From: a virus
Lineage: Duplodnaviria; Heunggongvirae; Uroviricota; Caudoviricetes
Reading direction: 5' to 3' (one strand)
Length of the DNA: 12,007 bases
IMG/VR virus record: IMGVR_UViG_2698536414_000003
The stretch's first letter is position 1. Each line of letters begins with the position of its first letter. The notes beneath the pieces are model-generated. The model ran no database searches. It saw nothing but the letters and a program-made list of their open reading frames with translations, and was not told the origin of the DNA. Positions 805 to 11,583 of the stretch are shown here, piece after piece. Position numbers and translations under genes: made by a program.

Positions 805-1668
805 TCATTTCGCATCTACAATAAATAACCTGTTTATCTGGCCTTTTTTAACAGTAGCCTTTGCGGTTATAGTGAATACTGCAGATGGATCACCTTTGGT
901 TGATATATATGCACTAAGAGCTCTAATATACGGGTTATTCTTCTTTCCTGCAGCTGGATCGCTAATTTCAGCAGTGATTCTCTTTTTTGAGTCATCACCA
1001 TCTAAAATTATTTTAGCTGTCATATTTTGTGCATCAAATTCTGTAAGAAAAGCACGATACTCACGAAGACCGAGAACTTCATCATCATCAAGCCTATCAA
1101 TTTCAGCTTTATCTCTCTCGTTAACTTTTAGAAGGCAGCCGTCAACATTTGTTGCAACACTTATCTGATCGCAAGTATTACCAATAGGTGATACTGCCTG
1201 CCTTACAGAGGGGCGAAGCTCTACAGCCATTCGGTCAATCAAAGAGATCAACTTATCAATGGTTCCAGCATCCTTGTTTCCTAGTGCCTCTATGGCCTTT
1301 TCAAGTGACTGCTGCAAAGCTTTCATTTCATCTTTCTTGTTAGAATTTCTCGCAAAAATATATTGTAGTATTGCGCCAAGTATAGTTGCGGCGATCCCCG
1401 AGAACAACTGGTTCTGAGTGGCGAAGTTAAGAACTGCTTCAAGAGTAAAGCAGTTAGCTTTTGCTTCGCGTGCGTAAACCTTAACTTCCTGATAATTAAT
1501 GTATTTACTATATTTTTGTGTAACAGAGAAAGAAGCTGCTGTTGAGAGAACTTTAGAAAAACCCTTTAGGGATTCTCCTAGGCAGTTCAAATCTATTTCA
1601 TGATTTAAAGCATCTTTTCCGTCATACCTAAGAGAGATTTTTATATCCTGTAAAGCGTCACAATCCAT
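805..1668 (-). CDS. 287-aa hypothetical protein with one central transmembrane helix; immunity-region cargo at the rexAB-equivalent position; candidate exclusion/abortive-infection gene
   Basis: Clean ORF with a GAGAG Shine-Dalgarno 66 nt downstream of the repressor stop. The DNA is visibly more AT-rich than its flanks. Hydrophobic segment [18 protein letters not shown] at about residues 88-105 (plus 1354-1407). I recognise no family. Confidence 0.7.
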
Positions 1669-1734: not shown

Positions 1735-2424
1735 TTATCCATGTTTCCTGTACGTCTGGGGCATGCTCCCAATAACCTTACCGAAGATGAACACCCGGTT
1801 CATCTCGTCTTTCTCGATCGGGTCCCACGGTGAGTAGCTCTTGTTATCAGAGATAACCAGCAGCTTATCCTTCATCATTTGCAGGCGCTTTACATGGGCT
1901 GTGTCGTCGTACAGAAACGCATAGATACCATCACCGTCGAAAGATTTAACCGTGATATCAACGAACAGCAGATCACCTGGTTCGATCGTTCCTGACATGC
2001 TGTCACCACGCACGTTAATGATGCGGATATTTTCCGCCTTCCTACCATCGAACATGTGACGAGCATCGTCAAACGAGTACTCAACCGAGCGTAGAACTTC
2101 TACAAACTCACGGTTGATGACTCCCGGCCCAGCACTGACTTCTATATCAAGAACGTCAATCTTGAAGTATTTGGAATGGCTGACAGTTGATTGTATTGGT
2201 TGCACTGTACTGTCTGACATATTTCCAACGCCAGAAGATAACCATTCTGCGCGCACACCCAAAGCGTTCGCGATCTCCACGATTTTAGTTGTTTGATTAG
2301 CTTTCCCTGTTTCGATTTTCTGAATAGCAGCCTGGCTAACCCCGACCAAATCCCCAAGCGCCTTTTGTGTAAGGCCTCGCGCTAATCTGGCTTCTTTAAG
2401 TCTTTCTGAGAGTGTTGTTTTCAT
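1735..2424 (-). CDS. cI: CI-type repressor (N-terminal XRE helix-turn-helix, C-terminal S24 LexA-like autopeptidase)
   Basis: HTH segment LTQKALGDLVGVSQAAIQKIETGK; Ala-Gly cleavage site in VSAGPG; GDSM serine motif and HVKRL lysine. Start taken at the ATG at 2424 (MKTTLSERLKEA), which looks leaderless as in lambda PRM; the longer ORF to 2490 would run through the operator. Confidence 0.85.
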   Translation of the reverse strand: MKTTLSERLKEARLARGLTQKALGDLVGVSQAAIQKIETGKANQTTKIVEIANALGVRAEWLSSGVGNMSDSTVQPIQSTVSHSKYFKIDVLDIEVSAGPGVINREFVEVLRSVEYSFDDARHMFDGRKAENIRIINVRGDSMSGTIEPGDLLFVDITVKSFDGDGIYAFLYDDTAHVKRLQMMKDKLLVISDNKSYSPWDPIEKDEMNRVFIFGKVIGSMPQTYRKHG

Positions 2425-2528: not shown

Positions 2529-2759
2529 ATGAACCCAGCTATCAAAACAGCGATCAATATCGTTGGTTCACAAAAGAAACTGGGCGCTGCTTGCGAAGTT
2601 TCACAGCAGGCCGTCTATAAGTGGCTTCACAACAAAGCAAAGGTATCCCCTGAACATGTCGGCAGCATTGTTACGGCTACTGGTGGAGTAGTGAAGGCAT
2701 ACCAGATTCGCCCGGATCTTCCGAAGTTGTTTCCACACACCGAAAAGAACGCAGCTTAA
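2529..2759 (+). CDS. cro: Cro/YdaS-family HTH regulator (Cro analog)
   Basis: 76 aa, GGAGG Shine-Dalgarno at 2519-2523, divergent from the repressor. HTH-like segment KKLGAACEVSQQAVYKW and an RPDL motif as I recall for YdaS-type Cro proteins. Confidence 0.8.
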   Translation: MNPAIKTAINIVGSQKKLGAACEVSQQAVYKWLHNKAKVSPEHVGSIVTATGGVVKAYQIRPDLPKLFPHTEKNAA

Positions 2760-2771
2760 ATTTCCATTTCA

Positions 2772-2784
2772 CGCTCTTTAACAA
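2772..2784 (+). promoter_or_regulatory. boxA-like element (nutR candidate)
   Basis: CGCTCTTTAACAA between cro and the next gene matches the boxA consensus. No clear GC-rich boxB hairpin follows. Confidence 0.45.
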
Positions 2785-2828
2785 TAAGCAATCAACTTAA
2801 CAGTCAATTCAAACTAAAGGAGTCAATT

Positions 2829-3368
2829 ATGCAACCACTTACATACCAACAGACTAGCGGATTTAGCCCGACTGCGGTGATAAATCGTTCTCAAACAAAA
2901 CAGGTGCCAGGCCACGAAAAAATCCGTGATGCCGTCCGCGCCTGGTCGGCTGTAGATAATCAGGATGTCGTTGCCACACTCATTGTGAATGAGTATCGGG
3001 AGCAGGGCGGCGGCACCATCGATTTCCCTGATGATGTCAGCCGTGCACGCCAGAAGCTGTTCCGCTTCCTCGATAACAAATTCGATTCTGAAAAATACCG
3101 AAATAACGTGCGTGAACTGACCCCGGCAATTCTGGCGGTACTACCGCTGGAATATCGCGGTTACCTGGTTGAGCAGGATAGCTTCATGGCTAGGTTGGCT
3201 GAAATGGAAAAGGAACTCAGTGAGGCAAAACAGGCTGTCATTCTCAACGCACCACGCCACCAGAAACTGAAGGAAATTAGTGAAGGTATTGTGTCGATGT
3301 TTCGTGTGGACCCAGATCTGGCTGGTCCATTGATGGCGATGGTTACTACCATGCTGGGGGCGATATGA
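2829..3368 (+). CDS. YdaT-like protein at the cII position
   Basis: 179 aa with AAGGAG Shine-Dalgarno. Motifs EYREQGGG and LTPAILAVLP resemble what I recall of Rac YdaT, which follows YdaS. Family call is from memory. Confidence 0.5.
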   Translation: MQPLTYQQTSGFSPTAVINRSQTKQVPGHEKIRDAVRAWSAVDNQDVVATLIVNEYREQGGGTIDFPDDVSRARQKLFRFLDNKFDSEKYRNNVRELTPAILAVLPLEYRGYLVEQDSFMARLAEMEKELSEAKQAVILNAPRHQKLKEISEGIVSMFRVDPDLAGPLMAMVTTMLGAI

Positions 3369-3454
3369 CAGGTTCAGAAATGGCGAAAGCCGGTCTGCTG
3401 GAACAGAACCGACTTTCAGGTGCAAATCGTAACACACTCATTGCGGGAGGAATT

Positions 3455-4384
3455 ATGGCAAACACTGCTGAGATATTCAATTTTCCAGTGCCGGATGCGG
3501 CACAAAAGGAGCCGCGCGTGGCAGATCTCGATGATGGTTATACGCGCATTGCAAATGAGTTGCTGGAAGCTGTGATGCTGGCCGGATTAACACAGCACCA
3601 GCTTCTGGTCTTCCTAGCTGTCATGCGCAAAACATATGGCTTTAATAAAAAACTGGATTGGGTGAGCAACGAGCAACTGTCCGAATTGACCGGGATATTG
3701 CCGCACAAGTGTTCTGCTGCAAAAAGTGTTCTGGTAAAGCGTGGGATTCTTATTCAGAGCGGGCGGAATACCGGCATTAATAATGTGGTCAGTGAATGGT
3801 CAACATTACCCGAATCAGGTAAGAAAAATAAAGTTTACCTGAAAGAGGTAAATTTACCTGAATCAGGTAAAAAAAGTTTACCCAAATCAGGTAAAGACGT
3901 TTACCCGAATCAGGTAAACACAAAAGACAAACTAACAAAAGACAATATAAAACCTTTTTCGTCCGAGAATTCTGGCGAATCCTCTGACCAGCCAGAAAAC
4001 GACCTTCCTGTGGAGAAACCAGATGCTGCAATTCAGAGCGGCAGCAGGTGGGGGACAGCAGAAGACCTGACCGCCGCAGAGTGGATGTTTGACATGGTGA
4101 AGACCATCGCGCCATCAGCCAGAAAACCGAATTTTGCAGGGTGGGCTAACGATATCCGCCTGATGCGTGAACGTGACGGACGTAACCACCGCGACATGTG
4201 CGTGCTGTTCCGCTGGGCATGCCAGGACAACTTCTGGTCCGGTAACGTGCTAAGTCCGGCCAAACTCCGCGACAAGTGGACCCAACTCGAAATCAACCGT
4301 AACAAGCAACAGGCAGGCGTGACAGCTAGCAAACCAAAACTCGACCTGACAAACACAGACTGGATTTACGGGGTGGATCTATGA
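3455..4384 (+). CDS. O: Replication initiator O (lambda O-like, iteron-binding)
   Basis: GGGAGG Shine-Dalgarno then ATG at 3455; starts MANTAEIFNF...VADLDDGYTRIANELLEA, like lambda O (MTNTAKILNF...VADLDDGYARL). Ori iterons lie inside the gene; stop overlaps the P start (ATGA). Confidence 0.85.
   Translation: MANTAEIFNFPVPDAAQKEPRVADLDDGYTRIANELLEAVMLAGLTQHQLLVFLAVMRKTYGFNKKLDWVSNEQLSELTGILPHKCSAAKSVLVKRGILIQSGRNTGINNVVSEWSTLPESGKKNKVYLKEVNLPESGKKSLPKSGKDVYPNQVNTKDKLTKDNIKPFSSENSGESSDQPENDLPVEKPDAAIQSGSRWGTAEDLTAAEWMFDMVKTIAPSARKPNFAGWANDIRLMRERDGRNHRDMCVLFRWACQDNFWSGNVLSPAKLRDKWTQLEINRNKQQAGVTASKPKLDLTNTDWIYGVDL
3806..3958. repeat. Replication origin: five iterons plus an AT-rich tract inside O
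   Basis: TTACC(C/T)(G/A)AA(T/A)(C/G)AGGTAA copies at 3806-3822, 3835-3851, 3854-3870, 3878-3894 and 3901-3917, each with inverted ends, followed by an AT-rich stretch at 3918-3958. Confidence 0.8.
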
Positions 4385-7815: not shown

Positions 7816-8002
7816 CTTGATTGATTTTCCATAATCAACCCGCCATAATCATGTCATCGGAGCCTGAACAACTCCGGTGACTTCTGCGCTAAACGGGGAC
7901 GTTTATGCGCACATACAATCCAACCTCTCTTCTCCATTCACAGATGCAGAAATGCACCTGCGATATTTTGCATCCAGCGTTTGATCTCTGCGGAGGTGAA
8001 GC

Positions 8003-9407: not shown

Positions 9408-9492
9408 AGTCAGAGATAACAATCAACTAATACTGTTTTGTTGATTTTTGCTTGTAATTGGCGTTTTGGTCTGATTTTTGTGGAGTAAGTTG

Positions 9493-9927
9493 ATGCGTGA
9501 TATTCAGATGGTTCTTGAGCGTTGGGGGGCGTGGGCGGCTAATAATCATGAAGATGTGACCTGGTCGTCCATTGCCGCCGGATTTAAGGGACTGATCCCC
9601 GAAAAAGTAAAATCACGTCCACAGTGCTGTGACGATGATGCGATGGTGATATGCGGGTGCATAGCCCGCCTTTACCGGAACAATCGCGATCTGCATGACT
9701 TGCTGGTTGATTATTACGTGTTGGGGGAGACGTTCATGGCGTTGGCACGGAAACATGGGTGCTCTGACACCTGTATAGGTAAACGCCTTCACAAAGCGGA
9801 GGGGATTGTTGAAGGCATGCTGATGATGCTGGGAGTGAGGCTTGAGATGGATCGGTATGTTGAGCGTGAATTGCCGGGAGGGAGAACCTCTGTATTTTAT
9901 CAGCGAAAAAATAGTTTACGATCGTAA
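9493..9927 (+). CDS. Q: Late-gene antiterminator Q (phage 82 / 933W-type)
   Basis: GGAG Shine-Dalgarno then ATG at 9493 ([19 protein letters not shown]), Cys-rich zinc-binding-like segment, followed by terminators and the tRNA cluster. Confidence 0.8.
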
Positions 9928-10368: not shown

Positions 10369-10444
10369 GGCCCTTTAGCTCAGTGGTGAGAGCGAGCGAC
10401 TCATAATCGCCAGGTCGCTGGTTCAAATCCAGCAAGGGCCACCA
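10369..10444 (+). tRNA. ileZ: tRNA-Ile (anticodon CAT, ileX-like)
   Basis: Cloverleaf folded by hand: 7-bp acceptor GGCCCTT / AAGGGCC, D-stem GCTC/GAGC, anticodon loop CTCATAA (CAT at 10402-10404), T-loop TTCAAAT, CCA encoded. Near-identical to E. coli ileX as I recall it; the CAT anticodon alone cannot exclude Met. Confidence 0.85.
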
Positions 10445-10451
10445 TCACATA

Positions 10452-10528
10452 CCGCCATTAGCTCATCGGGATAGAGCGTCAGCCTTCGAAGCTGGCTGTG
10501 CGGGGTTCAAGTCCCCGATGGCGGTCCA
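10452..10528 (+). tRNA. argN: tRNA-Arg (anticodon TCG)
   Basis: Acceptor CCGCCAT / ATGGCGG, anticodon loop CTTCGAA (TCG at 10486-10488), T-arm CGGGG TTCAAGT CCCCG, CCA encoded. Confidence 0.8.
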
Positions 10529-10541
10529 TTATCAGCATCAT

Positions 10542-10618
10542 GCGTTGTTAGCTCAGTCGGACAGAGCAATTGCCTTCTAAGCAATCGGTCACTGGTTCGA
10601 ATCCAGTACAACGCGCCA
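10542..10618 (+). tRNA. argO: tRNA-Arg (anticodon TCT)
   Basis: Acceptor GCGTTGT / ACAACGC, anticodon loop CTTCTAA (TCT at 10576-10578), T-loop TTCGAAT, CCA encoded. Confidence 0.85.
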
Positions 10619-11382: not shown

Positions 11383-11583
11383 TTTTTTTATTTGCTGTTT
11401 ATTAAAAACACTTCTGCATGGTGAATCCCCCTGTGCGGAGGGGCGATCAGCAACCAGGTATATGGGATAATCGCGGATTCAGGTGCTGATACTGAATTCA
11501 CCGGGAGGCACCCGGCACCATGCTTTGCCACAAAAGTGTTGTTTCTGTTTTTCTCAAACTATCATCGTTATCCCTTTATTTCC

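Follow-up and report, generated by a model that had tools for sequence, protein, structure and literature searches.

The cro-cII segment of a phi80-type lambdoid prophage and its YdaS/YdaT-family gene pair

In the viral DNA considered here (the window, 12,007 nucleotides in all), two genes encoding proteins of 76 and 179 amino acids occupy the slots between repressor and O genes where lambda has cro and cII. Do they form a Cro/CII pair, a toxin-antitoxin pair, or a Rac-type cassette that has come to lie beside a lambda-type repressor? The sequence-only reading of this locus had favored a Rac-type YdaS/YdaT pair combined with an S24 repressor, and had left the second product undecided between CII analog and toxin. 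We consider it very probable that the pair is the cro-cII of a phi80-type region, and that the 179-aa protein would act as a CII on a leftward promoter towards cI, a reading built on homology and on the comparison of related loci.

The immunity and early-right region

The window is the early region of a lambdoid prophage. Its main features, in window coordinates, are these.

Near 610-690: operator cluster of GGTTGT-type repeats (OL)
805-1668, minus strand: homologue of phi80 gene 40A, 287 aa, between OL and cI, which is the rexAB position
1735-2424, minus strand: cI repressor, 229 aa from MKTT, with an HTH and a predicted self-cleaving S24 domain (Pfam)
2425-2528: OR region, 104 bp, between cI and cro
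2459-2454 and 2436-2431, minus strand: putative PRM, TTGATG-17-TACATT, hexamers read from the sequence
2473-2478 and 2496-2501: putative PR, TTGACT-17-TAATCT, read likewise
2501-2518: imperfect YdaT-box-like palindrome TTGATTCAAATTAACCAC, two mismatches, just past the PR -10
2529-2759, plus strand: predicted cro, 76 aa, YdaS/P22-Cro-like HTH, with GGAGG upstream of the ATG
2772-2784, plus strand: boxA-like CGCTCTTTAACAA in the cro-cII spacer, read by eye
2829-3368, plus strand: predicted cII, 179 aa, YdaT family, phi80 subtype, with AAGGAG 7 nt upstream
About 3378-3446, minus strand: oop/M3-like antisense RNA between cII and O
3480-3475 and 3457-3452, minus strand: promoter of that RNA, TTGAAT-17-CATAAT, from a promoter scan, overlapping the conserved O start
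3455-4384, plus strand: O-like replication initiator, with its likely start at 3455 and not at the annotated 3365
9478-9927: Q antiterminator

The repressor gene is transcribed divergently from the 76-aa/179-aa pair and has every part of a LexA/CI-type S24 repressor. Pfam places an HTH_3 domain at the N terminus (49 bits) and Peptidase_S24 at the C terminus (67 bits, cut-off 23.3), and the translation shows GDSM, VKRL and SAGPG, that is, the Ser/Lys dyad and the Ala-Gly site, from which self-cleavage is predicted. RefSeq annotates an identical 690-nt gene as an S24 family peptidase and starts it, as we do, at the conserved MKTT at 2424; the 251-aa form listed among the open reading frames (to 2490) is probably overlong. 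In OR, the operator half-sites ACAACC/GGTTGT are repeated at 2436, 2468, 2483 and 2522, and the position of PRM predicts a leaderless cI mRNA.

The 287-aa protein encoded between OL and cI is 62% identical to phi80 gp40A over 285 aligned residues. It carries the Pfam domains DUF7946 and DUF7947, and its gene has a weak PADLOC match to PDC-S42 (E=1.5e-4). No N homologue was recognized in the window to the left of OL. Downstream of the 179-aa gene come O-like, P-like and Ren-like genes and then cargo, and the right part of the window holds ninB/ybcN-like, ybcO and rusA-like genes together with three tRNA genes. In the cro-cII spacer, CGCTCTTTAACAA resembles the rrn/nut boxA consensus, and no boxB-like hairpin follows it. 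A direct repeat, AGTCAATT, occurs twice in the same spacer (at 2802 and 2821) and was dropped because it is not kept in other loci.

To the right of the pair, 3370-3450 had been suggested as a place to search for PRE-like promoters; the stretch holds the oop/M3-like antisense RNA instead. The predicted RNA consists of two hairpins followed by a U-rich tail, with a terminator hairpin at about 3385-3417 and a fold z-score of -3.2. Compensatory changes affect 12 of its 17 predicted pairs (32 loci), and the M3 RNA of phi80, annotated as "homolog of lambda oop RNA", has the same place and shape. Searches of Rfam at gathering and E-value thresholds returned zero families for this RNA or for the nin leader described below. 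The presence of the RNA in this stretch also argues for an O start at 3455 rather than at 3365. Consistent with this, the PHROG and Pfam matches of the O-like protein begin at residue 31 of the long form or later, the 90 nt upstream of 3455 form a conserved hairpin region of non-coding character, and gene 15 of phi80 starts at the equivalent ATG.

Identity and kinship of the two products

Both open reading frames have good ribosome-binding sites, and profile searches confirm that the genes at 2529-2759 and 2829-3368 are YdaS- and YdaT-like, as had been proposed. The 76-aa protein matches Pfam YdaS_toxin (PF15943; E=4e-17, 62.2 bits, cut-off 30), with weaker matches to P22_Cro and HTH_3. PHROGs assigns it to phrog_35, "transcriptional repressor", its best solved relatives are the prophage Cro proteins 3BD1 and 5W8Y, and the gene is annotated as Cro in PhiR34_1. 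It therefore combines a profile match above cut-off with the position of a Cro analogue, first in the PR operon and divergent from the repressor gene. Membership in PF15943 is shared by 34 of 47 cro genes that adjoin a phi80-type cII. By homology, the 76-aa product is the Cro of its phage, with a YdaS/P22-Cro-like HTH.

The 179-aa protein stands where lambda has the 97-aa CII, next to a CI with HTH and S24 domains, and this part of the sequence-only reading is borne out. The protein matches Pfam YdaT_toxin (PF06254; E=8.5e-30, 103.5 bits, cut-off 21) over profile positions 1-90 of 92, and Pfam returns nothing else at E<=0.01, the lambda Phage_CII family included. It thus falls outside the lambda CII family. 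That reading had staked itself on a YdaT domain and on there being no clear CII homology; the profile search bears it out on both points. In PHROGs, the match is to phrog_163, "CII-like transcriptional activator" (226 bits). A profile built from 23 relatives reaches the solved YdaT of CP-933P (8BT1) with E=3.8e-8 over the DNA-binding domain, and 3C4R with E=3.9e-7. In the recognition helix of YdaT, an Arg has been singled out as the sole fully conserved residue (PMC9986795); R79 of the 179-aa protein aligns with this residue, Arg60 of CP-933P YdaT, and the helix sequence RQKLFRFLDN is invariant in the 23 relatives. The protein is accordingly predicted, from these alignments, to carry a POU-like HTH homologous to that of the solved YdaT, with the conserved Arg retained. 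Its fold assignment rests on the sequence profiles because the AlphaFold2 model, computed from the 23-sequence alignment, is poor over the DNA-binding half: the model is all-helical with an overall pLDDT of 58, reaching 80-90 at residues 120-170 and staying below 60 in the N-terminal half.

Which known protein is closest? A translated search of 50,697 phage records gives the cII of phi80, with 66% identity over the full length of 179-180 aa; the cII proteins of mEp237, HK225 and HK639 are 52-67% identical. The 179-aa protein has the length (about 180 aa), the full-length similarity and the flanks (cro, M3-like RNA and O-like gene) of the phi80-type cII subfamily, and by homology we take it to be the CII of its phage, of the YdaT family and the phi80 subtype. 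In phage records, separate searches found lambda CII in 348 and the phi80-type cII in 50. The name "cII" in phi80 is itself a GenBank annotation, and the CP-933P study describes the YdaT of that prophage as homologous to phi80 CII (PMC8630535).

The whole neighborhood of the pair is that of phi80, where the order is likewise 40A, an S24-type cI, the cro-like gene 30, cII, M3/oop RNA and genes 15 (O-like) and 14 (P-like) (X13065, JX871397). The O-like and P-like proteins are 42% and 48% identical to their phi80 counterparts. In both, cII and the O-like gene are separated by a small antisense RNA that folds into two hairpins and measures about 60-70 nt, and both have a palindromic TTGATW-N6-WATCAA box with CATAAT before a ninB-like gene. 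They differ in immunity: phi80 CI is 24% identical to the CI of the window, and its Cro gives no significant match. The cro-cII spacers differ too, that of the window having the boxA-like sequence and lacking the GCCGCC...GGCGGC hairpin of phi80. A swap of the cI-OR-cro cassette is the classic immunity difference among lambdoid phages. The locus is thus best explained as cro and cII of a lambdoid immunity and early-right region of the phi80 type. This arrangement is already annotated in X13065, and naming the pair cro/cII is right without being new.

These comparisons also bear on the description of the locus as a Rac-type pair joined to an S24 repressor. The families and the S24 domain were rightly named, and one could imagine that a Rac-type ydaS-ydaT cassette recently replaced cro-cII beside a lambda-type S24 cI, given that the Pfam families are those of Rac YdaS/YdaT and that the Rac-type systems studied so far pair with another kind of repressor: RacR and PaaR2, the latter the repressor of CP-933P and head of its TA operon, are both described as CI analogues without sequence similarity to CI (PMC8630535, PMC9986795). 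However, the nearest characterized relative is phi80 cII and not the YdaT of Rac or CP-933P, the latter being reached by phmmer with E=0.002 and over the DNA-binding domain only. Moreover, phi80 already couples such a cII with an S24 CI in the same layout. Peptidase_S24 is present in 25 of the 44 repressors adjoining a phi80-type cII (one genome per species), phi80 CI among them, the remainder being short HTH proteins, and near-identical prophages carry this cII beside one or another of at least two immunity cassettes, which is normal lambdoid mosaicism. The layout is therefore no unusual hybrid, and we regard a recent cassette replacement as very improbable.

The relatives in Rac and CP-933P are more informative about function. 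The YdaS/YdaT of CP-933P belong to the same Pfam families and occupy the same slot between repressor gene and O as the pair in the window, and they behave as Cro and CII analogues (PMC8630535). The two YdaT proteins share about 30% identity, confined to residues 22-107; the window protein is longer by about 40 residues overall (179 versus 141), about 24 of them at its N terminus. The crystal structure of CP-933P YdaT shows a POU-like HTH on a four-helix-bundle tetramer, which binds TTGATT-N6-AATCAA (PMC9986795); the protein is not toxic, and it turns on PRE933P, a reverse promoter that lies between ydaS and ydaT and is silent without it (PMC8630535). Rac YdaT is also a tetramer. Its site, ATGATT-CATGAA-AATCAA, spans the ydaT start codon, and the protein stimulates the reverse promoter PracR4 by as much as 29-fold, so that more racR is expressed (PMC11879457). 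YdaT proteins have been shown to be tetrameric HTH regulators that activate a reverse, PRE-like promoter and not as toxins of a TA system (Jobling 2018, PMC5917428; Jurenas 2021, PMC8630535; Prolic-Kalinsek 2023, PMC9986795; Rac study 2025, PMC11879457). We regard the role of the family as reasonably settled, with its extension to the phi80 subtype made by homology, so that an unsettled choice between CII analog and toxin is out of date.

It is easy to see how a toxin-antitoxin reading arises, in which the 76-aa protein would neutralize a toxic 179-aa partner and the two would stabilize the prophage. The Pfam family names suggest it, RefSeq calls the 179-aa protein a "toxin YdaT domain-containing protein", and over-expression of Rac YdaT leads to filamentation and death (PMC11879457). 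However, the TA label came from a prediction algorithm, without experimental confirmation (PMC5917428, PMC9986795), the CP-933P YdaT is harmless as noted above, and the toxicity in Rac is put down to mis-regulation of rcsA by a DNA-binding protein (PMC11879457), making toxicity by over-production through rcsA a feature of Rac YdaT. In the window, the two genes belong to a longer PR operon and fill exactly the cro and cII slots of an immunity region that is complete (OR, O and P genes, oop-like RNA), and PADLOC has no match for the 179-aa protein. For the relatives of this protein the TA reading is largely refuted, and for the pair itself we consider it extremely improbable. In this context the names given by Pfam and RefSeq, "toxin YdaT/YdaS", are misleading, the proteins being lysis-lysogeny regulators by homology; to make this plain is the chief practical use of the identification.

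The pair is also very common. The exact 900-bp cro-cII stretch is found in 2223 of 5426 complete E. coli genomes (about 40%), and phage genomes with E. coli K-12 or C in the host field (PhiR34_1 and others) carry this DNA under the annotation cI/Cro/cII. The cII of PhiR34_1 (PV340559, host field E. coli K-12 MG1655) is 100% identical. The identification of an already annotated cro/cII pair therefore matters little in itself. Two by-products might serve phage biologists: a concrete placement of the candidate cII site and PRE within the first 22 codons of phi80-type cII genes, and a strongly conserved perfect YdaT box at the left margin of the nin region.

A candidate cII site and leftward promoter in the first codons of cII

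If the 179-aa protein binds TTGATT-N6-AATCAA and activates a reverse promoter, as its relatives do, where might its sites be? Two places in the window are candidates, one within cII and one upstream of ninB. For the first, we compared 52 distinct loci with a phi80-type cII (the window, phi80 and 50 species-level genome loci).

2877-2894: candidate cII binding site GTGATAAATCGTTCTCAA, YdaT-box-like, in codons 17-22 of cII (+49 to +66), from the 52-locus comparison
2856-2851, minus strand: candidate PRE -10 hexamer TAGTCT, 20 bp to the left of the box

The element at 2877-2894 has two mismatches to the characterized YdaT site. At +49 to +66 of cII, all 52 loci read nTGATW-N6-nnTCAa, with TGAT and TC invariant, and 50 of them have at most three mismatches to TTGATW-N6-WATCAA, a level that only 0.15% of positions in these loci attain. 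Over codons 1-24 of cII, synonymous codons are more often identical than elsewhere (0.67-0.77, versus 0.53 overall), which points to constraint at the DNA level; this conservation could come in part from translation-start constraints or recent shared ancestry. When the 24-residue N-terminal extension is allowed for, the element and the footprinted Rac box differ in position by no more than about 20 nt.

To the left of the box, TAnnnT is present on the minus strand at +28 to +23 of cII in all 52 loci, and one T that never varies falls on a synonymous third position. A leftward promoter using this hexamer would start near 2844, with the box centered at about -41.5 and with no -35 hexamer, which gives it the look of an activator-dependent promoter. 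This class-II geometry departs from that documented for the relatives, in which the box is not at -41.5 but downstream of PRE933P in CP-933P and about 190 bp upstream of PracR4 in Rac. The Rac box, like the element in cII, lies at the 5' end of its gene, but it spans the start codon, and the promoter that it controls is some 190 bp away inside ydaS; the CP-933P box is at the end of ydaS, whereas the candidate in the window is inside cII. A strict scan between cro and cII found zero leftward promoters. Under relaxed settings the only one was TTCACT-17-AACAAT inside cro (2695-2667), which is weak and lies about 190 bp from the box, the Rac distance. Two weak terminator-like hairpins occur on the minus strand between the candidate PRE sites and cI.

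From CP-933P and Rac YdaT, and from the cII of phi80 by name, the following course of events may be proposed. After infection, PR would transcribe cro, cII, O and P. The product of cII, probably tetrameric and equipped with a POU-like HTH, would bind the palindrome in the first codons of its own gene (2877-2894) and switch on the leftward promoter lacking a -35, for which the -10 at 2856-2851 is favored. The resulting transcript would run antisense through cro into cI and set up repression, which the leaderless PRM transcript would then maintain, while the oop/M3-like RNA at about 3378-3446 would probably temper the expression of cII and O.

The proposed circuit has the genome place and logic of lambda Cro, CII and OOP (PR-cro-cII-oop-O-P), and in lambda, too, the CII site and PRE overlap the start of cII (PMC9986795). 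The proteins themselves are unlike: the 97-aa lambda CII has no sequence similarity to the window protein, and it binds a direct repeat, TTGC-N6-TTGC, whereas YdaT proteins bind an inverted repeat (PMC9986795).

A perfect YdaT box upstream of ninB

The second candidate site lies about 5 kb to the right. A scan of the window for TTGATT-N6-AATCAA gave a single exact match, with about 0.003 expected by chance.

7821-7838, plus strand: perfect YdaT box, TTGATT-TTCCAT-AATCAA
7821-7849, plus strand: promoter-like site TTGATT-17-CATAAT, with its -10 CATAAT at 7844-7849, the box forming its -35 and spacer

The promoter-like site is 154 nt upstream of ninB/ybcN, and the same hexamers are marked as a putative promoter in the 1996 record of phage 82 (X92588). 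The leader that follows is predicted to fold into two hairpins, which show compensatory changes, and the loop of the first, CCUGAACAA, is invariant. Whole genomes of phi80 and of PhiR34_1 each have exactly one perfect box, at this same ninB site, that of phi80 reading TTGATA-N6-TATCAA. More widely, a perfect box lies within 400 bp upstream of ninB in 48 of 54 viral contigs that have both a phi80-type cII and a ninB homologue. In these contigs the boxes have 13 different spacers and lie 3.3-8.6 kb from cII; fixed half-sites with free spacers mark a protein-binding palindrome under selection.

What protein would bind there? The window and phi80 share cII and the nin box but differ in CI and Cro, which makes cII the obvious candidate, and cII may bind 7821-7838 as a second target. 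The phi80-type cII is carried by 20 of 20 complete phage genomes that match the nin box region. Where contigs have a near-identical ybcN, 43 of the 51 with a phi80-type cII contain the box, against 2 of the 6 with a lambda-type CII; this association (Fisher p=0.015) is suggestive only, the contigs not being independent, and the box does occur beside a lambda-type CII in a few contigs. PRE-like class-II geometry was rejected for this site: there is no -10-like hexamer at the right distance on either side of the box, and only the overlapping TTGATT-17-CATAAT fits.

A box in this position raises the question of whether repression or roadblocking is the main function of the 179-aa protein, which would then favor lysogeny through palindromes over rightward promoters and 5' ends (2501-2518 and 7821-7849) and perhaps re-tune host genes. 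Of the sites in the window, the best is indeed the perfect box, which covers the -35 and spacer of a promoter-like site pointing rightward, and in a sister immunity type a perfect YdaT box, TTGATAATGACAAATCAA, spans the cro ATG. Rac YdaT also binds the racR-ydaS intergenic operators and one host promoter (PMC11879457), and the 2023 structure paper calls YdaT proteins repressors (PMC9986795). At 2501-2518, the imperfect match remains weak because a general YdaT box, sought between PR and cII in the 52 loci, is not enriched there (11 of 52 have a match, with about 0.1 matches expected per locus) and is no general feature. However, in both relatives studied the protein turns on a promoter that points back to the repressor gene (PMC8630535, PMC11879457), and the conserved box and TAnnnT in the 5' region of cII fit activation. 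We therefore consider a mainly repressive protein unlikely, with the reservation that repressor and activator roles are not mutually exclusive.

With cII as an activator towards cI, the nin box would add a further and more speculative step, in which cII bound at 7821-7838, over the rightward promoter before ninB...Q, holds back the late genes. The regulon of a phi80-type cII would then be unlike that of lambda CII: a PRE box in its own codons, and one perfect palindrome per genome over a rightward promoter and two-hairpin leader before ninB...Q. In prophages in which no N gene was recognized, such a cII-controlled gate on the late genes would serve the purpose of lambda paQ in another way, a possibility that we advance tentatively and hold to be somewhat doubtful. 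A cII tetramer might even bridge the cII-proximal and nin sites. If cII does bind the nin box, the decision circuit of these prophages, a group that about 40% of complete E. coli genomes contain, would gain a new control point.

The YdaT box and hairpin leader before ninB

The YdaT box, the inverted repeat TTGATT-N6-AATCAA bound by YdaT of CP-933P, occurs in perfect form ahead of ninB/ybcN, which begins 154 nt downstream.

7821-7849: perfect YdaT-box palindrome (TTGATT-TTCCAT-AATCAA) with a promoter-like site
7853-7915: two-hairpin leader, between the promoter-like site and ninB

The box overlaps the promoter-like sequence TTGATT-17-CATAAT. Of 54 related viral contigs, 48 retain the box, and its spacer among them is of 13 kinds. 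Both phi80 and PhiR34_1, a phage with an identical cII, have a single perfect box per genome. Among contigs with near-identical ybcN, which are not independent of one another, the box goes with phi80-type cII, being present in 43 of 51 such contigs versus 2 of 6 with lambda-type CII. In the leader, both hairpins show compensatory changes among divergent phages, and the 9-nt loop of the first hairpin (CCUGAACAA) is invariant; one contig, L178, carries three tandem copies. An Rfam search of the leader matched no family, and the phage 82 record labels the region a "possible regulator-binding site." The leader may act as an RNA of the nut/put type or as one that binds a protein.

From cro to the O-like gene

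A sister immunity type, represented by viral contig L244, has the same cII, with cro 50% and cI 80% identical to those of the window. In this type, a perfect box has the cro start codon inside its spacer.

L244 9737-9754: perfect box TTGATA-ATGACA-AATCAA, also in ~30 near-identical viral contigs
Window 2772-2784: near-consensus boxA, CGCTCTTTAACAA, in the cro-cII spacer

The window counterpart of the L244 box (2501-2518) is imperfect, with two mismatches. No boxB-like hairpin follows the boxA-like sequence. Farther along, the O-like gene as annotated in RefSeq and GenBank encodes 339 aa and starts at 3365, so that it overlaps with the stop codon of cII. Profile matches to this form begin only at residue 31 or later, and its first 90 nt (3365-3454) are the region of an oop/M3-like antisense RNA. 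The true start is probably 3455.

The region left of cI

600-700: cluster of (A/G)GTTGTTTTA repeats resembling OR half-sites
805-1668 (minus strand): 287-aa DUF7946/DUF7947 protein, between OL and cI

The repeat cluster is probably OL/PL, and it is placed as in phi80, where the order is N side, OL, 40A, cI. No N gene was recognizable left of OL within the window; a 96-aa open reading frame there (121-411) has no match in Pfam or PADLOC. The 287-aa gene takes the position of lambda rexAB, and its product is 62% identical to phi80 gp40A. PADLOC gave a weak PDC-S42 match (E=1.5e-4), and the gene was found in just 9 of 73 contigs with the same cII. It is possibly a prophage-encoded defense or exclusion gene.

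Genes beyond Q

10369-10618 and 11390-11559: tRNA-Met(CAT), tRNA-Arg(TCG) and tRNA-Arg(TCT), then an STnc100 match

Downstream of Q, the three tRNA genes are followed by a strong match (104 bits) to this sRNA family.
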